From assembly GCF_046105845.1 (NCBI RefSeq), contig NZ_CP151004.1: 64,000 nucleotides of DNA. One strand, given 5' to 3'. The notes under the pieces were generated by a model. The model made no database searches. It was not told the DNA's origin and saw only the letters and a program-made list of their open reading frames with translations. This document shows, one piece after another, positions 51 to 21,886 of this stretch (positions are counted from its first letter, which is position 1; each line of letters begins with the position of its first letter). The translations under genes were made by a program, and so were the position numbers. This stretch comes from Escherichia coli (GTDB lineage: Bacteria; Pseudomonadota; Gammaproteobacteria; Enterobacterales; Enterobacteriaceae).

Positions 51-115
51 TTCCCTCTCATCTGTATAAATTTCGAACTACACTTAACTGGCTTCTCTTA
101 ACTGAGGTCACCATC

Positions 116-559
116 ATGCCGTTAAGTCCCTACCTCTCTTTTGCCGGTAACTGTTCCGACGCGATTGCCTATTATCAACGTACGTTGGGCGCGGAACTGC
201 TCTATAAAATCAGCTTCGGCGAAATGCCGAAATCAGCGCAGGACAGCGCCGAGAACTGCCCTTCCGGAATGCAATTTCCCGATACCGCCATCGCTCATGC
301 CAATGTGCGCATTGCCGGAAGCGACATCATGATGAGCGATGCCATGCCGTCAGGAAAAGCCAGCTACTCCGGCTTTACGCTGGTGCTCGATTCGCAACAG
401 GTCGAAGAAGGAAAACGCTGGTTTGATAACCTTGCAGCTAACGGAAAAATCGAAATGGCCTGGCAGGAAACTTTCTGGGCGCATGGCTTTGGCAAAGTCA
501 CCGATAAATTTGGCGTACCGTGGATGATTAATGTCGTCAAACAACAACCAACGCAATAA
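116..559 (+). CDS. yjdN: YjdN/PhnB, glyoxalase-fold protein of unknown function
   Basis: ORF track 116..559 (147 aa); protein recognised; position immediately upstream of phnC. Confidence 0.85.
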   Translation: MPLSPYLSFAGNCSDAIAYYQRTLGAELLYKISFGEMPKSAQDSAENCPSGMQFPDTAIAHANVRIAGSDIMMSDAMPSGKASYSGFTLVLDSQQVEEGKRWFDNLAANGKIEMAWQETFWAHGFGKVTDKFGVPWMINVVKQQPTQ

Positions 560-614
560 CCCGCCGGGAGGCCCGCCCTCCCGCACTGTCATCGAATTCC
601 CGTTAACTCTTCAT

Positions 615-632
615 CTGTTAGTCACTTTTAGT
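615..632 (+). promoter_or_regulatory. Putative Pho box (PhoB site) of the phnC promoter, with -10 GATAAT at 648..653
   Basis: CTGTTAG-TCAC-TTTTAGT, two 7-nt direct repeats with 4-nt spacer, about 17 nt upstream of a GATAAT -10 and 60 nt upstream of phnC ATG; phn operon is a known Pho regulon member. Confidence 0.5.
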
Positions 633-691
633 TAACAAAATCGTCACGATAATCCGCCACGATGGAGCCACTTTTTTAGGGAGGCTGCATC

Positions 692-1480
692 ATGCAAACG
701 ATTATCCGTGTCGAGAAGCTCGCCAAAACCTTCAATCAGCATCAGGCGCTGCATGCGGTTGATCTGAACATTCATCACGGTGAAATGGTGGCTCTGCTTG
801 GGCCGTCCGGTTCCGGCAAATCCACCCTTTTACGTCATTTAAGCGGTTTGATTACCGGCGATAAATCTGCCGGTAGCCATATCGAGCTGCTGGGCCGCAC
901 AGTCCAGCGCGAAGGCCGCCTGGCCCGCGATATCCGCAAAAGCCGCGCCAACACCGGCTACATCTTCCAACAATTCAACCTGGTGAATCGCCTGAGCGTA
1001 CTGGAGAACGTGCTGATTGGCGCGCTCGGCAGCACGCCATTCTGGCGCACCTGTTTTAGTTGGTTCACCCGCGAGCAGAAACAGCGCGCGTTACAGGCGC
1101 TGACCCGTGTTGGCATGGTGCACTTTGCCCATCAGCGCGTTTCCACCCTCTCCGGCGGACAGCAGCAGCGTGTGGCAATTGCCCGTGCGCTGATGCAGCA
1201 GGCGAAGGTGATTCTGGCCGATGAACCCATCGCCTCGCTGGACCCGGAATCGGCGCGCATCGTGATGGACACCCTGCGCGACATTAACCAGAACGACGGC
1301 ATTACCGTGGTCGTCACGCTGCATCAGGTGGATTACGCCCTGCGCTACTGCGAACGCATCGTCGCCCTGCGCCAGGGGCACGTCTTCTACGACGGCAGCA
1401 GCCAACAGTTTGATAACGAACGTTTTGACCATCTCTACCGCAGCATCAACCGCGTCGAAGAAAACGCGAAAGCTGCCTGA
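692..1480 (+). CDS. phnC: Phosphonate ABC transporter ATP-binding protein PhnC
   Basis: ORF track 262 aa; Walker [13 protein letters not shown] signature LSGGQQQR; GGGAGG RBS upstream. Confidence 0.95.
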
Positions 1481-1504
1481 CATCCCCATCATTGAGGAAA
1501 ACGA

Positions 1505-2521
1505 ATGAACGCTAAGATAATTGCCTCGCTGGCCTTCACCAGCATGTTCAGCCTCAGCACCCTGTTAAGCCCGGCGCACGCCGAAGAGCAGGAAAAGGCG
1601 CTGAATTTCGGCATTATTTCAACGGAATCACAGCAAAACCTGAAACCGCAATGGACGCCGTTCTTGCAGGATATGGAGAAGAAGCTGGGCGTAAAGGTCA
1701 ACGCCTTCTTTGCCCCGGACTACGCGGGCATTATCCAGGGGATGCGCTTCAATAAAGTGGATATCGCCTGGTACGGCAATCTGTCGGCGATGGAAGCGGT
1801 GGATCGCGCCAACGGTCAGGTCTTCGCCCAGACGGTCGCGGCGGATGGATCGCCAGGTTACTGGAGCGTGTTGATCGTCAACAAAGACAGCCCGATCAAC
1901 AACCTGAACGATCTGCTGGCGAAGCGGAAAGATCTCACCTTCGGTAATGGCGATCCTAACTCCACCTCTGGCTTCCTCGTCCCCGGTTACTACGTCTTCG
2001 CCAAAAACAATATCTCCGCCAGCGACTTCAAGCGCACCGTCAATGCCGGGCATGAAACCAACGCGCTGGCCGTCGCCAACAAGCAGGTGGATGTGGCGAC
2101 CAACAACACCGAGAACCTCGACAAGCTGAAAACCTCCGCACCGGAGAAGCTCAAAGAGCTGAAAGTGATCTGGAAATCGCCGCTGATCCCAGGCGATCCG
2201 ATCGTCTGGCGCAAAAATCTGTCCGAAACCACCAAAGACAAGATCTACGACTTCTTTATGAATTACGGCAAAACCCCGGAAGAGAAAGCGGTGCTGGAAC
2301 GCCTGGGCTGGGCCCCGTTCCGCGCCTCCAGCGACCTGCAACTGGTGCCGATTCGCCAGCTAGCACTGTTTAAAGAGATGCAGGGCGTGAAAAGCAATAA
2401 AGGGCTGAATGAGCAGGACAAGCTGGCGAAAACCACCGCGATTCAGGCGCAGCTGGATGACCTGGACCGCCTGAACAACGCGTTAAGCGCGATGAGTTCG
2501 GTGAGTAAAGCGGTGCAGTAA
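1505..2521 (+). CDS. phnD: Phosphonate ABC transporter periplasmic binding protein PhnD
   Basis: ORF track 338 aa; signal peptide then binding-protein fold; operon context. Confidence 0.95.
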   Translation: MNAKIIASLAFTSMFSLSTLLSPAHAEEQEKALNFGIISTESQQNLKPQWTPFLQDMEKKLGVKVNAFFAPDYAGIIQGMRFNKVDIAWYGNLSAMEAVDRANGQVFAQTVAADGSPGYWSVLIVNKDSPINNLNDLLAKRKDLTFGNGDPNSTSGFLVPGYYVFAKNNISASDFKRTVNAGHETNALAVANKQVDVATNNTENLDKLKTSAPEKLKELKVIWKSPLIPGDPIVWRKNLSETTKDKIYDFFMNYGKTPEEKAVLERLGWAPFRASSDLQLVPIRQLALFKEMQGVKSNKGLNEQDKLAKTTAIQAQLDDLDRLNNALSAMSSVSKAVQ

Positions 2522-2525
2522 ATCG

Positions 2526-2611
2526 TAAGTCGGATAAGACGCCACGGCGTCGCATCCGACAATGTGCAGACGTTGATGCCGGATGCGGTGCAAGCACCTT
2601 ATCCGGCCTAC
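2526..2611. repeat. BIME: two REP elements between phnD and phnE
   Basis: gtcggataagacgcc...ggcgtcgcatccgac and gccggatgcgg...ccttatccggcctac palindromic units. Confidence 0.7.
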
Positions 2612-2626
2612 AGACCGGAGCCAAAC

Positions 2627-3406
2627 ATGCAAACCATCACCATCGCCCCACCCAAGCGCAGCTGGTTCTCGCTTCTGAGCTGGGCCATTGTACTCGCCGT
2701 GCTGGTCGTCTCGTGGCAGGGCGCGGAAATGGCCCCGCTCACGCTGATTAAAGACGGCGGCAACATGGCGACGTTCGCTGCCGACTTCTTCCCGCCCGAT
2801 TTCAGCCAGTGGCAGGATTACCTCACCGAAATGGCCGTCACGCTGCAAATCGCCGTCTGGGGCACCGCGCTGGCGGTGGTTCTCTCCATCCCCTTCGGCC
2901 TGATGAGCGCCGAAAACCTGGTGCCGTGGTGGGTTTACCAGCCCGTTCGCCGCCTGATGGACGCCTGCCGCGCCATTAACGAGATGGTCTTCGCCATGCT
3001 GTTCGTGGTCGCCGTCGGTCTCGGTCCGTTCGCTGGCGTACTGGCGCTGTTTATCCACACCACCGGCGTGCTCTCCAAACTGCTTTCCGAAGCGGTAGAA
3101 GCAATTGAACCCGGTCCGGTGGAAGGTATTCGCGCCACTGGTGCCAACAAGCTCGAAGAGATCCTCTACGGCGTGCTGCCGCAGGTGATGCCGCTGCTGA
3201 TCTCCTACTCCCTCTATCGCTTCGAATCCAACGTCCGTTCGGCCACCGTTGTTGGCATGGTCGGCGCTGGCGGGATCGGCGTCACCCTGTGGGAAGCGAT
3301 TCGCGGTTTCCAGTTCCAGCAAACCTGCGCCCTGATGGTGCTGATTATCGTCACGGTCAGCCTGCTGGATTTCCTCTCTCAACGGTTGCGTAAGCACTTT
3401 ATCTGA
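2627..3406 (+). CDS. phnE: Phosphonate ABC transporter permease PhnE (intact reading frame)
   Basis: ORF track 2564..3406; start re-assigned to ATG 2627 ([12 protein letters not shown]...) because the upstream extension lies in REP sequence; continuous to stop. Confidence 0.9.
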
Positions 3407-3426
3407 TAAGCGAGGCATTGATATCT

Positions 3427-4152
3427 ATGCACTTGTCTACACATCCGACCAGCTACCCAACACGCTATCAGGAGATAGCCGCAAAACTTGAGCAGGAGCT
3501 TCGTCAACACTACCGCTGCGGCGACTATCTTCCCGCCGAGCAGCAACTGGCGGCGCGCTTTGAGGTGAACCGCCACACCCTGCGCCGCGCCATCGACCAA
3601 CTGGTGGAAAAAGGCTGGGTACAGCGCCGTCAGGGCGTCGGCGTGCTGGTGCTGATGCGCCCGTTCGATTACCCGCTCAACGCCCAGGCGCGTTTTAGCC
3701 AGAACCTGCTGGATCAGGGCAGCCATCCCACCAGCGAAAAACTGCTGTCGGTGCTGCGCCCGGCCTCCGGTCACGTCGCTGACGCGCTGGGGATAACCGA
3801 GGGCGAGAACGTTATCCACCTGCGCACCCTGCGCCGGGTCAACGGCGTCGCGCTCTGTTTAATCGACCACTACTTTGCGGACCTCACCCTCTGGCCGACG
3901 CTGCAACGCTTCGACAGCGGCTCGCTGCACGATTTTCTGCGCGAGCAAACGGGGATTGCGCTGCGCCGCAGCCAGACGCGGATCAGCGCCCGCCGCGCCC
4001 AGGCCAAAGAGTGCCAGCGTCTTGAAATCCCGAATATGTCGCCGCTGCTGTGCGTGCGCACCCTTAACCACCGTGACGGTGAAAGCAGCCCGGCGGAGTA
4101 CTCCGTCAGCCTGACGCGCGCCGACATGATTGAATTCACTATGGAGCACTGA
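3427..4152 (+). CDS. phnF: GntR-family transcriptional regulator PhnF
   Basis: ORF track 3418..4152 begins with TTG; ATG at 3427 gives 241 aa MHLSTHPTSYP... Confidence 0.9.
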   Translation: MHLSTHPTSYPTRYQEIAAKLEQELRQHYRCGDYLPAEQQLAARFEVNRHTLRRAIDQLVEKGWVQRRQGVGVLVLMRPFDYPLNAQARFSQNLLDQGSHPTSEKLLSVLRPASGHVADALGITEGENVIHLRTLRRVNGVALCLIDHYFADLTLWPTLQRFDSGSLHDFLREQTGIALRRSQTRISARRAQAKECQRLEIPNMSPLLCVRTLNHRDGESSPAEYSVSLTRADMIEFTMEH

Positions 4153-4605
4153 ATGCACGCAGATACCGCGACCCGCCAGCACTGGATGTCCGTACTGGCA
4201 CACAGCCAACCGGCTGAACTGGCAGCCCGCCTGAAGGCGCTGAACATCACTGCCGACTATGAAGTAATCCGCGCCGCTGAAACCGGCCTGGTGCAGATTC
4301 AGGCGCGGATGGGTGGCACCGGCGAACGCTTTTTTGCTGGCGACGCCACGCTCACCCGCGCCACCGTACGCCTGACTGACGGCACGCTCGGCTACAGCTG
4401 GGTGCTGGGGCGCGACAAACAGCACGCCGAACGCTGCGCGCTGATTGACGCGCTGATGCAGCAAACCCGCCATTTTCAAAACTTATCAGAAACCCTTATT
4501 GCCCCGCTGGACGCTGACCGTATGGCACGCATTGCCGCACGCCAGGCCGAAGTGAACGCCAGCCGGGTCGACTTCTTTACGATGGTTCGCGGAGATAACG
4601 CATGA
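4153..4605 (+). CDS. phnG: C-P lyase complex subunit PhnG
   Basis: ORF track 150 aa; operon context. Confidence 0.95.
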
Positions 4606-5186
4606 CCCTGGAAACCGCTTTTATGCTTCCTGTGCAGGATGCCCAGCACAGTTTTCGTCGCCTGTTAAAGGCCATGAGCGAGCCGGGCGTGATTGTCGCC
4701 CTGCATCAGCTCAAACGCGGCTGGCAGCCGCTGAATATCGCCACCACCAGCGTGCTGCTGACGCTGGCCGATAACGACACGCCGGTGTGGCTTTCTGCGC
4801 CATTAAGTAACGATATCGTCAGCCAGAGCCTGCGTTTTCATACCAACGCGCCGCTGGTCAATCAGCCGGAACTGGCGACCTTCGCGGTAACGGATGAGGC
4901 GATTTCCAGCGAACAGCTTAACGCCCTTTCCAGCGGCACCGCTGTTGCGCCAGAAGCGGGCGCGACGCTGATTTTACAGGTCGTCAGCCTGAGCGGCGGG
5001 CGCATGCTGCGCCTTACTGGCGCGGGTATTGCCGAAGAACGAATGATCGCTCCGCAGCTGCCGGAGTGCATTCTGCACGAACTTACCGAGCGCCCGCACC
5101 CGTTCCCGCTCGGCATCGACCTGATCCTGACCTGCGGCGAGCGGCTGCTGGCTATCCCGCGAACCACTCATGTGGAGGTGTGCTGA
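4602..5186 (+). CDS. phnH: C-P lyase complex subunit PhnH
   Basis: ORF track 194 aa; ATGA overlap with phnG stop. Confidence 0.95.
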
Positions 5187-6250
5187 TGTACGTTGCCGTG
5201 AAAGGGGGCGAGAAGGCGATCGACGCCGCCCACGCCCTGCAAGAGAGCCGACGCCGGGGCAATACCGATTTGCCTGAACTGAGCGTCGCCCAGATTGAAC
5301 AGCAGCTTAATCTTGCAGTAGATCGCGTGATGACCGAAGGCGGCATTGCCGACCGCGAACTGGCGGCGCTGGCGCTGAAACAGGCCAGCGGCGATAACGT
5401 CGAAGCGATTTTCCTGCTACGCGCCTACCGCACCACGCTGGCGAAGCTGGCGGTAAGCGAGCCGCTCGACACCACGGAGATGCGTCTCGAACGGCGTATT
5501 TCAGCGGTTTATAAAGATATTCCCGGCGGCCAGCTGCTTGGCCCAACCTACGACTACACCCATCGCCTGCTCGATTTCACCCTGCTGGCAAACGGCGAAG
5601 CGCCGACGCTGACCACCGCCGACAGCGCACAACAGCCGTCGCCGCACGTTTTCAGCCTGCTGGCGCGTCAGGGGCTGGCGAAGTTTGAAGAAGATAGCGG
5701 CGCACAGCCGGACGACATCACCCGCACGCCGCCGGTTTACCCCTGCTCACGTTCTTCCCGTTTGCAGCAGCTCATGCGCGGAGACGAAGGCTATTTGCTG
5801 GCGCTGGCCTACTCCACCCAGCGTGGTTACGGACGCAATCATCCGTTCGCAGGCGAAATCCGCAGCGGCTATATCGACGTGTCGATTGTGCCGGAAGAGC
5901 TGGGATTTGCGGTGAACGTCGGCGAACTGCTGATGACCGAATGTGAAATGGTCAACGGTTTTATCGACCCACCGGATGAGCCGCCGCACTTCACGCGCGG
6001 CTACGGGCTGGTGTTCGGCATGAGCGAGCGCAAAGCGATGGCAATGGCGCTGGTTGACCGCGCTCTGCAAGCCCCGGAGTACGGCGAGCACGCGACAGGC
6101 CCGGCGCAGGATGAAGAGTTCGTGCTGGCGCATGCCGACAACGTCGAAGCCGCAGGCTTTGTCTCGCACCTTAAACTCCCGCACTACGTCGATTTCCAGG
6201 CCGAACTGGAGCTACTCAAACGTCTGCAACAGGAGCAGAACCATGGCTAA
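5186..6250 (+). CDS. phnI: C-P lyase complex subunit PhnI
   Basis: ORF track 5066..6250; start re-assigned to ATG 5186 ([13 protein letters not shown]...), 354 aa, overlapping phnH stop. Confidence 0.9.
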   Translation: MYVAVKGGEKAIDAAHALQESRRRGNTDLPELSVAQIEQQLNLAVDRVMTEGGIADRELAALALKQASGDNVEAIFLLRAYRTTLAKLAVSEPLDTTEMRLERRISAVYKDIPGGQLLGPTYDYTHRLLDFTLLANGEAPTLTTADSAQQPSPHVFSLLARQGLAKFEEDSGAQPDDITRTPPVYPCSRSSRLQQLMRGDEGYLLALAYSTQRGYGRNHPFAGEIRSGYIDVSIVPEELGFAVNVGELLMTECEMVNGFIDPPDEPPHFTRGYGLVFGMSERKAMAMALVDRALQAPEYGEHATGPAQDEEFVLAHADNVEAAGFVSHLKLPHYVDFQAELELLKRLQQEQNHG

Positions 6251-7088
6251 TCTGAGCGGCTACAACTTTGCTTACCTCGACGAGCAGACCAAACGCATGA
6301 TCCGCCGCGCCATCTTAAAAGCGGTAGCGATCCCCGGTTATCAGGTACCTTTTGGCGGGCGCGAGATGCCGATGCCGTACGGCTGGGGAACTGGTGGTAT
6401 CCAGCTTACCGCCAGCGTGATTGGCGAAAGCGACGTGTTGAAGGTGATTGACCAGGGCGCGGATGACACCACCAACGCCGTGTCGATTCGCAACTTCTTT
6501 AAGCGCGTGACCGGGGTAAACACCACTGAACGTACGGACGATGCGACGCTTATCCAGACGCGCCACCGCATCCCCGAAACGCCGCTGACCGAAGATCAGA
6601 TCATTATTTTCCAGGTGCCGATCCCGGAACCGCTGCGCTTTATCGAGCCGCGCGAAACGGAGACCCGCACTATGCACGCGCTGGAGGAGTACGGCGTGAT
6701 GCAGGTGAAACTGTATGAAGATATCGCCCGCTTCGGTCATATCGCCACCACTTATGCCTATCCGGTGAAGGTGAACGGGCGCTACGTGATGGACCCGTCG
6801 CCGATCCCGAAATTCGATAACCCGAAAATGAACATGATGCCCGCCCTGCAGCTGTTCGGCGCAGGGCGCGAGAAGCGCATCTATGCGGTGCCGCCGTTTA
6901 CCCGCGTGGAAAGTCTCGATTTCGACGATCACCCGTTCACCGTTCAGCAGTGGGATGAGCCATGCGCCATCTGCGGATCGACCCACAGCTATCTCGACGA
7001 AGTGGTGCTGGATGACGCCGGAAACCGCATGTTTGTCTGCTCCGATACCGATTATTGCCGCCAACAGAGCGAGGCAAAAAACCAATGA
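6243..7088 (+). CDS. phnJ: C-P lyase core subunit PhnJ
   Basis: ORF track 6054..7088; start re-assigned to ATG 6243 (MANLSGYNFAYLDEQ...), 281 aa; C-terminal Cys cluster. Confidence 0.9.
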   Translation: MANLSGYNFAYLDEQTKRMIRRAILKAVAIPGYQVPFGGREMPMPYGWGTGGIQLTASVIGESDVLKVIDQGADDTTNAVSIRNFFKRVTGVNTTERTDDATLIQTRHRIPETPLTEDQIIIFQVPIPEPLRFIEPRETETRTMHALEEYGVMQVKLYEDIARFGHIATTYAYPVKVNGRYVMDPSPIPKFDNPKMNMMPALQLFGAGREKRIYAVPPFTRVESLDFDDHPFTVQQWDEPCAICGSTHSYLDEVVLDDAGNRMFVCSDTDYCRQQSEAKNQ

Positions 7089-7843
7089 ATCAACCGTTAC
7101 TTTCGGTCAATAACCTGACCCACCTTTACGCGCCGGGCAAAGGCTTTAGCGATGTCTCTTTTGATTTATGGCCGGGGGAAGTGCTGGGCATCGTCGGGGA
7201 ATCCGGCTCCGGGAAGACCACGCTGCTGAAATCAATTTCCGCGCGTCTGACGCCGCAGCAAGGGGAGATTCACTATGAAAACCGTTCCCTCTATGGCATG
7301 AGCGAGGCCGACCGCCGTCGCCTGCTGCGCACCGAATGGGGCGTGGTGCATCAGCATCCACTCGACGGCCTGCGCCGCCAGGTGTCGGCAGGCGGCAATA
7401 TCGGCGAGCGGCTGATGGCGACCGGGGCGCGTCATTACGGCGATATTCGCGCCACCGCGCAGAAGTGGCTGGAAGAGGTGGAGATTCCCGCTAACCGGAT
7501 CGACGACCTGCCAACCACCTTTTCCGGCGGCATGCAGCAGCGTTTGCAGATTGCCCGCAACCTGGTGACGCATCCGAAGCTGGTGTTTATGGACGAACCA
7601 ACCGGCGGGCTGGATGTATCCGTACAGGCGCGCCTGCTCGACCTGCTGCGCGGCCTGGTGGTGGAGCTGAACCTGGCGGTAGTGATTGTTACCCACGATC
7701 TGGGCGTCGCCCGCCTGCTGGCGGACCGTTTGCTGGTGATGAAACAGGGGCAAGTGGTGGAGAGTGGGTTAACCGACCGCGTGCTCGACGACCCGCACCA
7801 CCCGTACACCCAGTTGCTGGTGTCATCGGTTTTGCAGAATTGA
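7085..7843 (+). CDS. phnK: C-P lyase accessory ATP-binding protein PhnK
   Basis: ORF track 7055..7843; ATG 7085 ([11 protein letters not shown]...), 252 aa; Walker [10 protein letters not shown]. Confidence 0.9.
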
Positions 7844-7847
7844 GCCA

Positions 7848-7934
7848 GTGCCGGATACGGCGTAAACGCCTTATCCGGCCGACAAATGCGCTCCCCGTAG
7901 GTCGGATAAGACGCGTCAGCGTCGCATCCGACAC
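7848..7934. repeat. BIME: two REP elements between phnK and phnL
   Basis: gtgccggatacggcgtaaacgccttatccggc and gtcggataagacgcgtcagcgtcgcatccgac palindromic units. Confidence 0.7.
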
Positions 7935-7953
7935 CCGAACCACGAGGCGAAAA

Positions 7954-8634
7954 ATGATTAACGTACAAAACGTCAGTAAAACCTTCATCCTGCACCAGCA
8001 AAACGGCGTGCGCCTGCCCGTCTTACAACGTGCCTCGCTCACCGTCAACGCAGGCGAATGCGTGGTGCTTCACGGCCACTCCGGCAGCGGAAAATCAACC
8101 CTGCTGCGCTCGCTGTACGCCAACTATCTGCCCGATGAAGGTCAAATCCAGATCAAACACGGTGATGAGTGGGTAGACCTGATCACCGCGCCAGCCCGCA
8201 AAGTGGTGGAGATCCGCAAAACCACCATCGGCTGGGTGAGCCAGTTTCTGCGCGTTATCCCGCGTATTTCGGCACTGGAAGTGGTGATGCAGCCGCTGCT
8301 CGATACCGGCGTACCGCGTGAAGCCTGCGCCGCTAAAGCCGCCCGATTACTGACGCGCCTGAACGTGCCTGAACGCCTGTGGCACCTGGCACCATCGACC
8401 TTCTCCGGCGGCGAACAGCAGCGCGTCAACATCGCCCGTGGCTTTATCGTCGACTATCCGATTCTGCTGCTGGATGAACCCACCGCCTCGCTGGACGCTA
8501 AAAACAGCGCCGCGGTGGTGGAACTAATTCGCGAAGCCAAAGCCCGCGGCGCGGCCATCGTCGGTATCTTCCATGACGAAGCCGTACGCAATGACGTCGC
8601 CGACCGCCTGCACCCGATGGGAGCCTCTTCATGA
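7954..8634 (+). CDS. phnL: C-P lyase accessory ATP-binding protein PhnL
   Basis: ORF track 7840..8634; ATG 7954 ([11 protein letters not shown]...), 226 aa; the upstream extension is REP sequence; Walker [10 protein letters not shown]. Confidence 0.9.
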
Positions 8635-9767
8635 TTATCAATAACGTCAAACTGGTGCTGGAAAATGAAGTGGTGCACGGTTCACTGGAAGTACAGGATG
8701 GCGAAATTCGGGCCTTTGCCGAAAGCCAGAGCCGCCAGCCGGAAGCGATGGACGGCGAAGGTGGCTGGCTACTGCCCGGACTGATTGAGCTGCATACCGA
8801 CAACCTCGATAAATTCTTCACCCCGCGCCCGAAAGTCGACTGGCCCGCCCATTCGGCGATGAGCAGCCACGACGCGCTGATGGTGGCAAGCGGCATCACC
8901 ACCGTACTGGACGCCGTGGCGATTGGTGATGTGCGCGACGGCGGCGATCGGCTGGAGAATCTGGAGAAGATGATCAACGCCATCGAAGAGACGCAGAAAC
9001 GCGGCGTCAACCGCGCCGAGCACCGCCTGCACCTGCGCTGCGAACTGCCGCACCACACCACGTTGCCGCTGTTTGAAAAACTGGTGCAGCGCGAACCGGT
9101 GACGCTGGTATCGCTGATGGACCACTCGCCAGGCCAGCGCCAGTTCGCCAATCGCGAGAAGTATCGCGAATATTATCAGGGCAAATATTCCCTCACCGAT
9201 GCGCAGATGCAGCAGTACGAAGAAGAGCAATTGGCGCTCGCCGCACGCTGGTCGCAGCCAAATCGCGAAACCATCGCCGCAATGTGCCGCGCGCGACACA
9301 TTGCCCTCGCCAGCCACGATGACGCCACGCACGCCCACGTTGCCGAATCTCACCAGCTTGGCAGCGTGATCGCCGAATTTCCCACCACGTTCGAAGCGGC
9401 AGAAGCCTCGCGCAAGCATGGCATGAACGTGCTGATGGGCGCGCCGAATATCGTGCGCGGCGGTTCGCACTCCGGCAACGTGGCGGCCAGTGAACTGGCG
9501 CAGCTTGGCCTGCTGGATATCCTCTCTTCCGACTACTACCCCGCCAGCCTGCTCGATGCGGCATTTCGCGTCGCCGATGACGAGAGCAACCGCTTTACGC
9601 TGCCGCAGGCGGTGAAGCTGGTGACTAAAAATCCGGCGCAGGCGCTTAATCTTCAGGATCGCGGAGTGATTGGCGAGGGCAAACGCGCCGACCTGGTGCT
9701 GGCGCATCGCAAGGGCAACCACATTCATATCGACCACGTCTGGCGTCAGGGTAAAAGGGTGTTCTGA
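8631..9767 (+). CDS. phnM: Amidohydrolase-family PhnM (ribosyl-phosphonate triphosphate diphosphohydrolase)
   Basis: ORF track 378 aa; operon context. Confidence 0.95.
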
Positions 9768-10324
9768 TGACGGGAAAACTGATTTGGTTAATGGGGGCCT
9801 CTGGCTCCGGAAAAGACAGTCTGTTGACGGAACTCCGCCAGCGGGAACAAACTCAGTTACTGGTGGCGCATCGCTACATCACGCGCGATGCCAGCGCCGG
9901 AAGCGAAAATCATATCGCCCTGAGCGAGCAGGAGTTTTTTACCCGCGCGGGGCAAAATCTGCTGGCCTTAAGCTGGCACGCCAACGGCCTGTATTATGGC
10001 ATCGGCGTCGAGATTGACCTCTGGCTGCACGCTGGATTTGACGTGGTGGTCAACGGCTCACGCGCCCATCTGCCGCAGGCGCGGGCGCGCTATCAATCGG
10101 CGCTGCTGCCCGTTTGTTTACAGGTTTCGCCAGAGATCCTGCGCCAGCGCCTGGAAAACCGTGGTCGTGAAAATGCCAGTGAAATTAACGCCCGACTAGC
10201 ACGCGCTGCCCGCTATACTCCTCAGGATTGTCTTACGCTCAATAATGACGGCAGCCTGCGCCAGTCGGTCGACACGCTGCTGACGCTGATTCATCAGAAG
10301 GAGAAAAACCATGCCTGCTTGTGA
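9767..10324 (+). CDS. phnN: Ribose 1,5-bisphosphate phosphokinase PhnN
   Basis: ORF track 185 aa; P-loop GASGSGKDS. Confidence 0.95.
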
Positions 10325-10745
10325 GCTTCGCCCGGCTACGCAGTACGACACCGACGCAGTTTACGCGCTGATTTGTGAGCTAAAACAGGCGGAGTTTGAC
10401 CACCATGCGTTTCGCGTGGGGTTTAACGCCAATCTGCGCGACCCGAACATGCGCTACCATTTGGCGCTGCTGGATGGCGAAGTTGTCGGCATGATCGGCC
10501 TGCATTTGCAGTTTCATCTGCATCATGTCAACTGGATCGGCGAAATTCAGGAACTGGTGGTGATGCCGCAGGCGCGCGGTCTGAACATCGGCAGTAAATT
10601 ACTGGCATGGGCAGAAGAAGAAGCCCGCCAGGCCGGGGCAGAAATGACCGAGCTTTCCACCAACGTCAAGCGCCACGACGCGCACCGTTTCTATCTGCGC
10701 GAAGGCTACGAGCAGAGCCACTTCCGCTTCACCAAGGCGCTGTAA
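10311..10745 (+). CDS. phnO: Aminoalkylphosphonate N-acetyltransferase PhnO (GNAT family)
   Basis: ORF track 144 aa; 14-nt overlap with phnN. Confidence 0.95.
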
Positions 10746-10746
10746 C

Positions 10747-11505
10747 ATGAGCCTGACCCTCACACTTACTGGCACTGGCGGCGCACAGGGCGTTCCCGCA
10801 TGGGGCTGTGAGTGCGCGGCCTGCGCCAGAGCGCGGCGCTCACCGCAGTATCGCCGCCAGCCATGCAGCGGCGTCGTGAAGTTTAACGACGCGATCACCC
10901 TGATCGACGCCGGGCTGCACGATCTCGCCGATCGCTGGTCGCCCGGATCGTTCCAGCAGTTTTTGCTGACGCACTACCATATGGATCACGTGCAGGGGCT
11001 GTTTCCGCTGCGCTGGGGCGTGGGCGATTCGATCCCGGTCTACGGCCCGCCGGATGAACAGGGCTGCGACGATCTGTTTAAACATCCGGGCCTGCTTGAT
11101 TTCAGCCACACGATGGAACCGTTTGTGGTGTTTGATTTGCAGGGGTTGCAGGTCACGCCCCTGCCGCTCAACCATTCGAAACTCACTTTCGGCTATCTAC
11201 TGGAAACGGCACATAACCGGGTGGCGTGGCTGTCTGACACCGCAGGCCTGCCGGAAAAAACGCTGAAATTTTTACGCAATAATCAGCCACAGGTAATGGT
11301 GATTGATTGCAGCCACCCACCGCGCGAGGATGCACCGCGTAATCACTGTGATTTAAACACCGTGCTGGCGCTGAATCAGGTTATCCGCTCGCCACGGGTG
11401 ATTCTGACCCATATCAGCCACCAGTTTGATGCGTGGCTGATGGAAAACGCACTGCCGTCGGGGTTTGAGGCGGGGTTTGATGGGATGGAGATTGGGGTGG
11501 AGTGA
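10747..11505 (+). CDS. phnP: Metallo-beta-lactamase-fold phosphodiesterase PhnP
   Basis: ORF track 252 aa; HxHxDH motif ([10 protein letters not shown]). Confidence 0.95.
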
Positions 11506-11539
11506 TGGGTGAGGGGCGATGCCTGCTCCATACCCAACA

Positions 11540-11869
11540 TCATCGCCCATACTCATCTTCCATTCTCCGCTCTTCATCCTCCAGTTGCCGACGCTCCTGA
11601 TCAAGCTGGCGTTGGCGATCGTCCAGCTGCCTGCGGCGATCTTCAAACTGGCGGCGGCGATCGTCATATTGTCTGCGCCGATCGTCGTTCACTTCACGCT
11701 GCCAGCCGTCGTCGTGCGAATCTTCATAGTCTCGCCCACGGTCAGGGTTATAAGCATCGTTAATCGCCTGCTGAATATTGCCAATGGTGTCGTCGATAAT
11801 ATCGGCCTGGGCCGGAACGGTAGACAGCGTGAGCAGGGTGAATAAAAGAAATAGCGGAAAGCGTTTCAT
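11540..11869 (-). CDS. yjdP: YjdP, secreted highly charged repeat protein
   Basis: ORF track 109 aa; N-terminal signal peptide MKRFPLFLLFTLLTLSTVPAQA; GAGG RBS 8 nt upstream; DDRRRQ-type repeats. Confidence 0.8.
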   Translation of the reverse strand: MKRFPLFLLFTLLTLSTVPAQADIIDDTIGNIQQAINDAYNPDRGRDYEDSHDDGWQREVNDDRRRQYDDRRRQFEDRRRQLDDRQRQLDQERRQLEDEERRMEDEYGR

Positions 11870-11937
11870 TAGCCAACCTCAAAAAGAAACTCTATCCACA
11901 TTAGTCATTACTCATCCATGCAAGTAGTGGATGAATC

Positions 11938-12255
11938 TCAATTTCTCCGCTGCTCTATTGCCGTAATCGCCTCCACGCGTTGTTGATGACGACCGCCTTC
12001 GTACTGCGCGCCCAGCCACGCATCCACAATCATTTTTGCCAGTTCGAGGCCAACCACTCGTGAACCAAAAGCCAGTGCAACTTCACTGGCGTAATGCGGA
12101 TAATCAGTGCGCTCTGACGACCTGGTTTCTTTATCAATCCCCTCACTCATTGACCATGAATAAAAGGCTGGCACAGCAACGCAGAATCCTGCGGTGCCAG
12201 CGACATGACCGCCCATTGCTCCGGTACGTTTTTTAAAAAGAAACATCGGTTGCAT
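11938..12255 (-). pseudogene. rpiB: rpiB remnant (ribose-5-phosphate isomerase B) with diverged N-terminus and internal in-frame deletion
   Basis: ORF track 105 aa; C-terminal 43 aa FGSRVVGLELAKMIVDAWLGAQYEGGRHQQRVEAITAIEQRRN and segment SSERTDYPHYAS match RpiB as remembered, but the catalytic middle segment and native N-terminus are absent. Confidence 0.7.
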
Positions 12256-12507
12256 TGATAAATTGTGCTCAGTATTTGCCGAAGTACAATATATATAATA
12301 AATATATAAAATACCTCATATTATTTGCAGAGATAATAAACTCGCGTACTTTTCCCTCTTCAGCACAAATGCCTAATAAAATGGCTCGCTCCGCTCACAC
12401 TTCCACTTATTAAAGTCGCAAATTCCCAATTATGATAACGCCAGCTTCAAATGACGTATTTTGCATGGACTACATATTTACGACATAAATGATAAATGGA
12501 GATTTAT

Positions 12508-19738: not shown

Positions 19739-21886
19739 ATGAAAAAAGTCGTCACGGTTTGCCCCTATTGCGCATCAGGTTGCAAAATCAACCTGGTCGT
19801 CGATAACGGCAAAATCGTCCGGGCGGAGGCAGCGCAGGGGAAAACCAACCAGGGTACCCTGTGTCTGAAGGGTTATTATGGCTGGGACTTCATTAACGAT
19901 ACCCAGATCCTGACCCCGCGCCTGAAAACCCCCATGATCCGTCGCCAGCGTGGCGGCAAACTCGAACCTGTTTCCTGGGATGAGGCACTGAATTACGTTG
20001 CCGAGCGCCTGAGCGCCATCAAAGAGAAGTACGGTCCGGATGCCATCCAGACGACCGGCTCCTCGCGTGGTACGGGTAACGAAACCAACTATGTAATGCA
20101 AAAATTTGCGCGCGCCGTTATTGGTACCAATAACGTTGACTGCTGCGCTCGTGTCTGACACGGCCCATCGGTTGCAGGTCTGCACCAATCGGTCGGTAAT
20201 GGCGCAATGAGCAATGCTATTAACGAAATTGATAATACCGATTTAGTGTTCGTTTTCGGGTACAACCCGGCGGATTCCCACCCAATCGTGGCGAACCACG
20301 TAATTAACGCTAAACGTAACGGGGCGAAAATTATCGTCTGCGATCCGCGCAAAATTGAAACCGCGCGCATTGCTGACATGCACATTGCACTGAAAAACGG
20401 CTCGAACATCGCGCTGTTGAATGCGATGGGTCATGTCATTATTGAAGAAAACCTGTACGACAAAGCGTTCGTCGCTTCCCGTACAGAAGGCTTTGAAGAG
20501 TATCGTAAAATCGTTGAAGGCTACACGCCGGAGTCGGTTGAAGATATCACCGGCGTCAGCGCCAGTGAGATTCGTCAGGCGGCGCGGATGTATGCCCAGG
20601 CGAAAAGCGCCGCCATCCTGTGGGGCATGGGTGTAACCCAGTTCTACCAGGGCGTGGAAACCGTGCGTTCTCTGACCAGCCTCGCGATGCTGACTGGTAA
20701 CCTCGGTAAGCCGCATGCGGGTGTAAACCCGGTTCGTGGTCAGAACAACGTGCAGGGTGCCTGCGATATGGGCGCGCTGCCGGATACGTATCCGGGATAC
20801 CAGTACGTAAAAGATCCGGCTAACCGCGAGAAATTCGCCAAAGCCTGGGGCGTGGAAAGCCTGCCTGCTCATACCGGTTATCGCATCAGCGAGCTGCCGC
20901 ACCGCGCAGCGCATGGCGAAGTGCGTGCCGCGTACATTATGGGCGAAGATCCGCTGCAAACTGACGCGGAGCTGTCGGCAGTACGTAAAGCCTTTGAAGA
21001 TCTGGAACTGGTTATCGTTCAGGACATCTTTATGACCAAAACCGCGTCGGCGGCGGATGTTATTTTACCGTCAACGTCGTGGGGCGAGCATGAAGGCGTG
21101 TTTACTGCGGCTGACCGTGGCTTCCAGCGTTTCTTCAAAGCAGTTGAACCGAAATGGGATCTGAAAACGGACTGGCAAATCATCAGTGAAATCGCCACCC
21201 GTATGGGTTATCCGATGCACTACAACAACACCCAGGAGATCTGGGATGAGTTGCGTCATCTGTGCCCGGATTTCTACGGTGCGACTTACGAGAAAATGGG
21301 CGAACTGGGCTTCATTCAGTGGCCTTGCCGCGATACTTCAGATGCCGATCAGGGGACTTCTTATCTGTTTAAAGAGAAGTTTGATACCCCGAACGGTCTG
21401 GCGCAGTTCTTCACCTGCGACTGGGTAGCGCCAATCGACAAACTCACCGACGAATATCCGATGGTACTGTCAACGGTGCGTGAAGTTGGTCACTACTCTT
21501 GCCGTTCGATGACCGGTAACTGTGCGGCACTGGCGGCGCTGGCTGATGAACCTGGCTACGCACAAATCAATACCGAAGACGCCAAACGTCTGGGTATTGA
21601 AGATGAGGCATTGGTTTGGGTGCACTCGCGTAAAGGCAAAATTATCACCCGTGCGCAGGTCAGCGATCGCCCGAACAAAGGGGCGATTTACATGACCTAC
21701 CAGTGGTGGATTGGTGCCTGTAACGAGCTGGTTACCGAAAACTTAAGCCCGATTACGAAAACGCCGGAATACAAATACTGCGCCGTGCGCGTCGAGCCGA
21801 TCGCCGATCAGCGCGCCGCCGAGCAGTACGTGATTGACGAGTACAACAAGTTGAAAACTCGCCTGCGCGAAGCGGCACTGGCGTAA
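19739..21886 (+). CDS. fdhF: Formate dehydrogenase H (selenoprotein); in-frame UGA at 20156..20158 read as selenocysteine
   Basis: ORF track pieces 19739..20158 and 20207..21886 are in one frame separated by TGA; combined 715 aa; CxxCxxGC 4Fe-4S motif at N-terminus; ...CARV-U-HGPSVAG context. Confidence 0.95.
20156..20204 (+). promoter_or_regulatory. SECIS element (SelB-binding mRNA hairpin) directly 3' of the fdhF UGA
   Basis: UGA followed by cacggcccatcggttgcaggtctgcaccaatcggtcggtaatggcg, which can fold as a stem-loop. Confidence 0.85.

Follow-up and report, generated by a model that had tools for sequence, protein, structure and literature searches.

Coupled translation of overlapping genes has been measured in E. 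coli gene pairs that are the closest described counterparts of the phn operon. Four of five native overlapping pairs were coupled, and removal of the Shine-Dalgarno (SD) motif lowered the coupling; bioBF was the one pair without it (PMC6728339). Coupling drops steeply with distance, and spacings of -8 to +10 nt are taken as coupling-competent (PMC10666635). Longer overlaps, like the -14 of phnN/O, gave poor coupling in published synthetic tests. Short-distance E. coli pairs are also 4.5-fold enriched for complex subunits (PMC10666635), and PhnG, PhnH, PhnI, PhnJ and PhnK co-purify as one complex from plasmid pHO575 encoding phnGHIJK (PMC9947105). The phn spacings themselves have already been published: the E. 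coli distances from F/G through N/O are tabulated with the same numbers as we report below, with the G/H, H/I, I/J and J/K pairs labelled complex subunits and PhnM, PhnN, PhnO and PhnP labelled "not complex", and the cross-species medians are -1 for PhnG/H, -1 for H/I, -4 for I/J, -4 for J/K and -4 for L/M, with an n column of 133 to 233 (PMC10666635 supplement). The overlapping phn junctions are real, ordinary and already known.

The experimentally coupled E. coli pairs (PMC6728339; PMC10666635) resemble the phn core in that they likewise have spacings of -4, -1 or -8, carry the SD inside the upstream gene and encode subunits of one complex. However, coupling is a measured property of those pairs and a putative one of the phn pairs, and phnN/O, at -14, lies outside the -8 to +10 class. 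Among the papers covered by full-text search, no report of phn-specific translational coupling was found.

The window is the whole stretch of 64,000 nucleotides that was analyzed. The E. coli phnCDEFGHIJKLMNOP operon occupies its first 11.5 kb, with 14 co-linear genes from phnC to phnP on one strand; this operon is not expressed when phosphate is plentiful. By megablast, at least 80% query coverage was found in 5,386 E. coli genomes. Gene coordinates come from E300010, the closest genome (99.7% identical), by transfer of its RefSeq annotation. In the window sequence, every gene was then examined for three features: an ATG at the start, one stop only, at the end, and a length that is a multiple of three. 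With annotation transferred from E300010 and K-12, the ORFs are intact throughout. PhnG, H, K, L, M, N, O and P all score above their NCBIfam equivalog cut-offs, and PhnI and PhnJ match PDB 4xb6 and 7z15 from end to end. The features are as follows.

phnC, 692-1480, plus strand: transporter/regulator part of the same operon
phnD, 1505-2521, plus strand: transporter/regulator part of the same operon
phnE, 2627-3406, plus strand: transporter/regulator part of the same operon, intact
phnF, 3427-4152, plus strand: transporter/regulator part of the same operon
phnG, 4153-4605, plus strand: C-P lyase core subunit, TIGR03293 at 177.5 bits against a cut-off of 89
phnH, 4602-5186, plus strand: above NCBIfam equivalog cut-off, SD GGAG within the phnG 3' end
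phnI, 5186-6250, plus strand: 354 aa, PF05861 at 514 bits, SD GGAGG
phnJ, 6243-7088, plus strand: 281 aa, PF06007 at 501 bits, SD AGGAG
phnK, 7085-7843, plus strand: NCBIfam TIGR02323, SD GAGG
phnK-phnL spacer, 7844-7953, no strand assigned: 110 nt, two inverted REP palindromes, BIME-type
phnL, 7954-8634, plus strand: NCBIfam TIGR02324, own SD GAGG in the spacer, accessible start
phnM, 8631-9767, plus strand: above NCBIfam equivalog cut-off
phnN, 9767-10324, plus strand: above NCBIfam equivalog cut-off
phnO, 10311-10745, plus strand: NF007530 aligned over 1-144 of 144, SD AAGGAG
phnP, 10747-11505, plus strand: above NCBIfam equivalog cut-off, SD AAGG

Junction spacing, defined as the start of the next gene minus the end of the previous gene minus 1, takes the following values.

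phnC/D: gap of +24
phnD/E: gap of +105
phnE/F: gap of +20
phnF/G, 4150-4155: gap of 0, TGAATG, stop abutting start
phnG/H, 4602-4605: -4, ATGA, phnH ATG over phnG TGA
phnH/I, 5184-5188: -1, TGATG, one base common to phnH TGA and phnI ATG
phnI/J, 6243-6250: -8, ATGGCTAA, phnJ start 8 nt inside phnI
phnJ/K, 7085-7088: -4, ATGA, phnK ATG over phnJ TGA
phnK/L: gap of +110
phnL/M, 8631-8634: -4, ATGA, phnM ATG over phnL TGA
phnM/N, 9765-9769: -1, TGATG, one base common to phnM TGA and phnN ATG
phnN/O, 10311-10324: -14, phnO start 14 nt inside phnN
phnO/P, 10743-10749: +1, TAAcATG, phnP start 1 nt past phnO TAA

Of the ten junctions between phnF and phnP, nine are tight, i.e., the downstream start lies on, just inside or beside the upstream stop. 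Every overlap or abutment listed in the earlier note (G/H, H/I, I/J, J/K, L/M, M/N, N/O and O/P) was found in the sequence, and the span it gave, 4602-10749, runs exactly from the phnH ATG to the phnP ATG; F/G and K/L were missing from its list. Across the operon, 8 of 13 junctions fall within -8 to +6, compared with 24% of E. coli co-directional pairs (707/2,987; PMC10666635), which gives a binomial P of 0.004 over all 13 junctions and of 0.0009 when only the nine from G to P are counted. Against an assumed within-operon baseline of 35-45%, P for the 8 of 13 junctions is 0.05-0.18. The run of tight junctions is real and enriched, though only modestly so against this baseline, and it is unexceptional for an operon.

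A mechanical ORF list gives longer versions of phnI (5066-6250, 394 aa vs 354) and phnJ (6054-7088, 344 aa vs 281), as well as of phnK (from 7055) and phnL (from 7840), the last two of which had not been mentioned earlier. The additions to phnI and phnJ are as follows.

phnI ORF extension, 5066-5185, plus strand: 40 codons from a GTG at 5066, inside phnH, spurious
phnJ ORF extension, 6054-6242, plus strand: 63 codons from a TTG at 6054, inside phnI, spurious

If these longer ORFs were real, PhnI and PhnJ, and also PhnK and PhnL, would at least partly be made from upstream in-frame GTG or TTG codons, and the sole support for this is that the frames are open in the window. However, variable sites in the extensions follow the upstream gene, with 7 of 9 in the phnI extension on phnH third positions and 16 of 17 in the phnJ extension on third positions of phnI (second positions when read in the frame of the extension). 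The phnI extension has an in-frame stop in three strains, the phnL extension has one in a single strain, and K-12 and O157 lack the TTG at 6054. No SD motif was found at the extended starts, with an SD energy of +1.1 for the phnI extension. Family profiles and structures likewise begin at the annotated starts: position 1 of PF05861 aligns to the annotated PhnI Met, where PDB chains 4xb6_C and 7z15_C also start; PF06007 begins at annotated PhnJ residue 6, with the deposited PDB chains starting at the annotated Met; and position 1 falls at annotated PhnK residue 3 for TIGR02323 and at the annotated PhnL Met for TIGR02324. Additionally, the PhnI motif MYVAVKGGE begins at Met1 in seven lineages, and the PhnI N-terminus is resolved in cryo-EM, where its free amino group coordinates Zn. 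The operon holds 18 open off-frame runs that are 73 codons or longer. The possibility that the longer ORFs are used is therefore effectively refuted and has next to no probability, and the phnI, phnJ, phnK and phnL extensions are artefacts.

The earlier note had called the extensions spurious, which agrees with these results, and had attributed them to the overlaps, which does not suffice for their length. The long extensions arise because the operon has a G+C content of 59.7%, so that off-frame stops are rare, at one per 22-29 codons. The annotated phn starts are confirmed, and longest-ORF calls for phnI, phnJ, phnK and phnL are to be disregarded. A phnL start at TTG 7840, which would turn K/L into a TTGA overlap and leave the chain unbroken, was considered and rejected: the stretch crosses the K/L spacer and is the REP pair, it holds an in-frame stop in strain 95-3322 and no SD, and the PhnL profile runs from the annotated Met.

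The same spacing from F/G to O/P is present in curated K-12, NC_000913.3 (0, -4, -1, -8, -4, +110, -4, -1, -14, +1), and the geometry is identical in seven E. coli genomes that are 93.6-99.7% identical to the window. The K-12 phn operon (b4106-b4092) has the same 14 genes in the same order at about 95% nucleotide identity to the window. However, phnE is intact in the window, whereas its frame is shifted in K-12 by an additional 8-bp GCTGGCGT copy. In the six annotated plasmid-borne phn operons examined (Oceanisphaera, Shinella, Paracoccus, Thermus, a Dysgonomonadaceae plasmid and a Klebsiella plasmid), G/H, H/I, I/J and J/K lie at -20 to +4. The exact overlap varies among these operons, and GGAG-type motifs lie upstream.

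The annotated starts are all ATG, and in every gene the SD of the annotated start surpasses those of the other in-frame candidates. The SDs of the tightly packed genes sit in the last codons of the upstream gene, and at eight of the nine tight junctions the SD duplex energy is -5.5 to -10.6 kcal/mol against an operon background mean of -2.2. The strongest internal SD is GGAGG of phnI (-10.6 kcal/mol), that of phnO, AAGGAG, is also strong (-8.8 kcal/mol), and the weakest is AAGG of phnP (-3.2 kcal/mol). Third positions of the upstream gene within -18 to +2 of the nine tight starts vary at 6 of 66 sites compared with 25.8% operon-wide (P about 0.0006), in a comparison of eight related strains and 66 sites only. 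This low variation indicates selection on the embedded initiation regions.

Predicted local accessibility of the downstream starts is average to high, from the 27th to the 96th percentile. Of two general models for coupling, one holds that it works via RNA unfolding (PMC12548453), and here this would mean that buried downstream ribosome binding sites are opened only by ribosomes on the upstream gene. Predicted accessibility is slightly below average at the starts of phnI (27th percentile) and phnN (44th percentile), which would fit such a model. However, predicted unpaired probability at -15 to +5 is not low: relative to the operon background, five of the nine tight junctions reach the 72nd percentile or higher, and no sequestration of ribosome binding sites was seen in the predicted local unpaired probabilities at these nine junctions. 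In the native E. coli pairs tested, constructs limited to the segment from -99 to +30 nt at the junction were also enough for coupling, which argues against long-range structure (PMC6728339). We therefore consider RNA unfolding a very improbable basis for coupling in this operon.

With respect to the published spacing range of -8 to +10 nt, F/G, G/H, H/I, I/J, J/K, L/M, M/N and O/P lie inside it, and N/O (-14) and K/L (+110) lie outside. At the tight junctions the SD lies inside the upstream gene, with phnP being the weak case. The earlier note held that the overlaps imply translational coupling across the C-P lyase genes. In its favor, the geometry is of the class that couples in E. coli and is conserved across phyla for the complex subunits, but "imply" is too strong given that each start has an SD of its own at a site predicted to be accessible and that N/O is outside the coupling range. 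Coupling across the phn genes is plausible and can reasonably be inferred from these data, most strongly for the PhnGHIJ(K) complex.

Our preferred explanation, which we regard as fairly probable, is termination-reinitiation at the tight phn junctions, mattering most for the G to K complex, with the tight spacing of the separate enzymes reflecting compaction. The C-P lyase genes are carried on one polycistronic mRNA, and a ribosome ending at an upstream stop would not yet have left this mRNA when it meets the next SD and AUG, where it could reinitiate. Reinitiation would link the outputs of adjacent cistrons, and this linkage would weigh most within the single complex formed by PhnG, H, I, J and K, in which G, H, I and J are each present twice. 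At L/M, M/N, N/O and O/P, where the products are separate enzymes, the tight spacing is probably operon compaction; coupling may be weaker or incidental there, with de novo initiation at the genes' own SDs contributing. We infer this dependence of downstream on upstream translation from junction geometry.

Alternatively, the overlaps might be a neutral by-product of compaction and of the easy origin of NTGA and TGATG arrangements, with the phn cistrons translated independently. Since every downstream gene comes with an SD of its own and a start predicted to be accessible, independent initiation is also possible. The junctions of PhnM, PhnN, PhnO and PhnP are as tight as the others even though these proteins are labelled "not complex" (PMC10666635 supplement), a -4 overlap arises easily in evolution, which may by itself make it common (PMC12548453), bioBF overlaps without being coupled (PMC6728339), and the excess of tight junctions over the within-operon baseline is only modest. 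However, the tightness of G/H/I/J/K is kept across three phyla even though the exact overlap shifts, which argues for maintenance and against accident, and both the coupling of most native overlapping pairs (PMC6728339) and the enrichment of complex subunits among short-distance pairs (PMC10666635) point the same way. We consider neutral overlap a less likely explanation than reinitiation, but one with an appreciable chance of being correct. The phn overlaps agree with the general tendency of genes for subunits of one complex to overlap, and have little significance beyond correct annotation.

The K/L spacer is the sole break in the G to P chain of tight junctions. It contains an inverted pair of palindromes at about 7850-7883 and 7897-7933, the first of which fits the REP consensus with three mismatches, compared with zero matches expected by chance. 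The spacer folds at -48.4 kcal/mol (z -4.8) with two predicted hairpins, and the 110-nt sequence occurs at a median of at least 40 places per genome, in 5,425 of 5,426 E. coli genomes. The version of NC_000913.3 used here lists no REP features, and the REP call rests on the consensus, folding and copy-number tests. The D/E spacer also holds an inverted REP pair, with a score of 64.6 bits for the REP-derived family Rfam RF02564 against a gathering score of 59.5 and a fold z of -4.0. Both spacers, with two inverted palindromes of about 35 nt, resemble the malE-malF type of REP/BIME element in E. coli intercistronic spacers, and the K/L element likewise shows the dispersal of such elements in its at least 40 copies per genome. 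In other annotated phn operons the K/L spacing is +3 to +11, except for one of -1 and one of +64 (Shinella). The REP pair is absent from this junction in the five of these six operons other than that of Shinella.

In the reinitiation model, the chain would be interrupted once, at phnK/phnL, by the inserted REP hairpin pair, and therefore phnL would have to initiate independently. The pair might also be more than a passive insertion, acting as a functional uncoupler that sets the PhnGHIJK:PhnLMNOP ratio. Such an uncoupler would break the reinitiation chain and form a hairpin beginning 6-7 nt past the phnK stop. It could act by protecting mRNA 3' ends, by stalling ribosomes where phnK translation ends, or in both ways. 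We regard this role as unlikely.

Downstream of the operon, the als genes are missing in the window's strain, unlike in K-12. A scan of the operon gave 2 promoter-like sites compared with 4.1 expected from shuffled controls, none of them at junctions, and 19 terminator-like matches compared with 12.0 ± 3.8 expected. Ahead of phnC, CTGTTAGTCACTTTTAGTTAACAAAATCGTCAC at about 615-647 resembles the phnC pho box and is a candidate for a PhoB-dependent promoter element.

The phosphonate operon phnCDEFGHIJKLMNOP occupies positions 692-11505 of the window. Gene coordinates were carried over from the RefSeq annotation of strain E300010, the top match (99.7%) to a 7.5-kb query over the overlapping genes, and were then verified in the window sequence, where all 14 phn genes have an ATG start, a length divisible by three and a single, terminal stop. 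At least 80% of the query length is covered in 5,386 of 5,426 complete E. coli genomes, and identity to K-12 is about 95%.

Distances between adjacent phn genes, computed from the window sequence (next start minus previous end minus 1; negative values are overlaps)
phnC/phnD: +24 nt
phnD/phnE: +105 nt
phnE/phnF: +20 nt
phnF/phnG: 0 nt (abutting)
phnG/phnH: -4 nt
phnH/phnI: -1 nt
phnI/phnJ: -8 nt
phnJ/phnK: -4 nt
phnK/phnL: +110 nt
phnL/phnM: -4 nt
phnM/phnN: -1 nt
phnN/phnO: -14 nt
phnO/phnP: +1 nt

All junctions that an earlier note had named as overlapping or abutting match its description, and its interval, 4602-10749, begins at the phnH ATG and ends at the phnP ATG; the abutting F/G junction was missing from its list. 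Annotation of the curated K-12 reference (NC_000913.3) shows the same geometry, as does that of seven further E. coli genomes whose phnG-P segments share 93.6-99.7% identity with the window.

Among co-directional E. coli gene pairs, 707 of 2,987 (24%) are spaced at -8 to +6 nt (PMC10666635). Compared with this proportion, tight spacing is overrepresented both in the whole operon (8/13 junctions, binomial P 0.004) and from phnG to phnP (7/9, binomial P 0.0009), while the excess of 8/13 over a within-operon baseline of 35-45%, which was assumed rather than measured, is modest (P 0.05-0.18). Although genuine and enriched, the run of tight junctions is unremarkable for an operon. The overlaps are also already known, and have already been read in the same way. 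In their supplement, Huber et al. (2023) list the K-12 distances from F/G to N/O as 0, -4, -1, -8, -4, 110, -4, -1 and -14, mark G/H, H/I, I/J and J/K as complex subunits, and report median spacings across species (n column, 133 to 233) of -1 for PhnG/H and H/I and -4 for PhnI/J, J/K and L/M (PMC10666635). Given these published distances, flags and medians, the overlap observation is not new.

In operons from Oceanisphaera, Shinella, Paracoccus, Thermus, a Dysgonomonadaceae plasmid and a Klebsiella plasmid, the G/H, H/I, I/J and J/K junctions all lie at -20 to +4 nt, but the exact overlaps differ. The Dysgonomonadaceae plasmid (Bacteroidota) carries a phnGHIJKL cluster at 5000-9300 with GGAG-type Shine-Dalgarno (SD) motifs at its junctions; Bacteroidota rarely use SD sequences. 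Its flanking gene layout is similar to that of the Klebsiella plasmid cluster, a likeness that suggests horizontal transfer.

The mechanical ORF list does contain the extended phnI (5066-6250) and phnJ (6054-7088) that the earlier note considered spurious, and it also lengthens phnK (from 7055) and phnL (from 7840), which the note did not mention. Five lines of evidence refute these extended starts and establish the annotated starts as the true ones, so that the extensions are demonstrably spurious. First, among eight aligned E. coli sequences, 16 of 17 variable sites in the phnJ extension (6054-6242) are third positions in the phnI frame and second positions in the extension frame, and 7 of 9 in the phnI extension (5066-5185) are third positions in the phnH frame. 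The phnI extension has an in-frame stop in three of these strains and the phnL extension a stop in one, and the TTG at 6054 is absent in K-12 and O157. Second, none of the four extended starts has an SD match (+1.1, -2.2, +0.3 and -2.4 kcal/mol), while in every gene the best SD among in-frame candidate starts belongs to the annotated ATG (-5.5 to -10.6 kcal/mol, the weakest being phnP at -3.2; background mean -2.2). Third, position 1 of the Pfam PhnI profile falls on the annotated Met1, the Pfam PhnJ profile starts at annotated residue 6, the NCBIfam PhnL and PhnK profiles start at the annotated Met and residue 3, respectively, and deposited PDB chains have the same first residues as the annotated starts. 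Fourth, the PhnI N-terminus MYV(A/P/T)V(K/R)GGE stands right at Met1 in annotated operons of six other lineages from three phyla, with one additional residue (MGYV) in Thermus. Fifth, in cryo-EM of the C-P lyase complex expressed from phnGHIJK-containing plasmids, Zn coordination is completed by the free amino group at the PhnI N-terminus (PMC9947105), which is consistent with the annotated start but not with a protein extended by 40 residues.

The proposal that the overlaps explain the extensions holds only in part. Overlaps are a precondition, since the extensions arise because true starts sit inside the upstream coding sequence or at its end, but extension length is explained by base composition. 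Off-frame stops are scarce (one per 22-29 codons) because the operon has 59.7% G+C, compared with 52.6% for the whole window, and the operon contains 18 off-frame stretches of 73 codons or more that stay open. The operon is also unusually diverse within E. coli, with about 10% of sites variable among 8 strains and K-12 only 95% identical; its high G+C and diversity may reflect foreign origin or frequent recombination.

At every tight junction, the final codons of the upstream gene include a motif of the GGAG or GAGG type. Around the nine tight starts (-18 to +2), 6 of 66 third-codon positions of the upstream gene vary, against 25.8% operon-wide (P about 0.0006). This comparison, made on only eight related strains, suggests that the embedded initiation regions are under constraint. 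The geometry fits a class with demonstrated termination-reinitiation in E. coli: four of five native overlapping pairs were coupled, mostly in an SD-dependent manner, and bioBF was not (PMC6728339). Coupling is nearly gone beyond about 20-40 nt spacing (PMC10666635; PMC12548453). Subunits of heteromeric complexes are 4.5-fold enriched among such tight E. coli pairs (PMC10666635), and the core that binds PhnK and PhnL contains two copies each of PhnG, H, I and J (PMC9947105). By analogy, reinitiation would couple translation of the core genes at their tight junctions; we regard this as the likeliest function there and as fairly probable, which leaves the coupling interpretation of the earlier note plausible.

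It is possible that each phn gene instead initiates independently at its own SD. The start regions have average to high predicted local accessibility (27th-96th percentile of operon background), which gives no support for buried ribosome-binding sites at the tight junctions that need upstream ribosomes to open. Our literature search found no direct coupling experiment on phn. Coupling by reinitiation is less certain than for the core genes at L/M, M/N and O/P, whose products are separate enzymes. At N/O it is doubtful, because -14 is beyond the efficient range and coupling drops as overlap grows in synthetic tests (PMC12548453).

The 110-nt phnK-phnL spacer (7844-7953) is the only long gap within phnG-P. 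It contains two inverted REP palindromes in a BIME-like arrangement; the REP consensus matches 7850-7883 with 3 mismatches (0 expected by chance), and the element recurs in essentially every E. coli genome, at 40 or more sites in each. Since the spacer is a REP pair and other operons are mostly tight at K/L (five at -1 to +11 nt, Shinella at +64), the chain of tight junctions in E. coli is broken here by repeat insertion. phnL has its own SD and a start predicted to be accessible. The predicted fold of the spacer has two strong hairpins (-48.4 kcal/mol, z -4.8), the first stem beginning 6-7 nt past the phnK stop, and these may affect phnK translation or mRNA stability. The 105-nt phnD-phnE spacer (2522-2626) is of the same kind: it also contains an inverted REP pair, its predicted fold has z -4.0, and it has one Rfam match:
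2528-2608, minus strand, naRNA4 (RF02564), 64.6 bits (gathering score 59.5)

Further strain differences were seen along the operon. phnE is intact in the window, while K-12 has one extra copy of the 8-bp repeat GCTGGCGT at about 3031, the frameshift known to render phnE cryptic in that strain. In an O157:H7 strain, phnO is frameshifted by a 1-nt insertion immediately past the N/O overlap (aligned to window position ~10326), and in strain A37 the 12-bp tandem repeat CGGGGTTTGAGG near the phnP 3' end (~11458) is expanded by 24 bp. Just past the phnP stop (11505/11506), E300010 and K-12 carry a repeat-like insert of ~124 nt with CCCTCTCCC...GGGAGAGGG motifs, which is missing in the window and MLI121. 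At the position equivalent to 11506-12500, K-12 has alsRBACEK and O157 another insert, whereas the window, E300010 and MLI121 lack alsRBACEK. Downstream of yjdP, a truncated rpiB-like ORF (105 aa, 11938-12255, minus strand) lies directly next to yjcS. Two Rfam matches lie elsewhere in the window:
20151-20205, bacterial SECIS element (RF01988), 87 bits
40502-40642, sRNA sraL (RF01408), 153 bits
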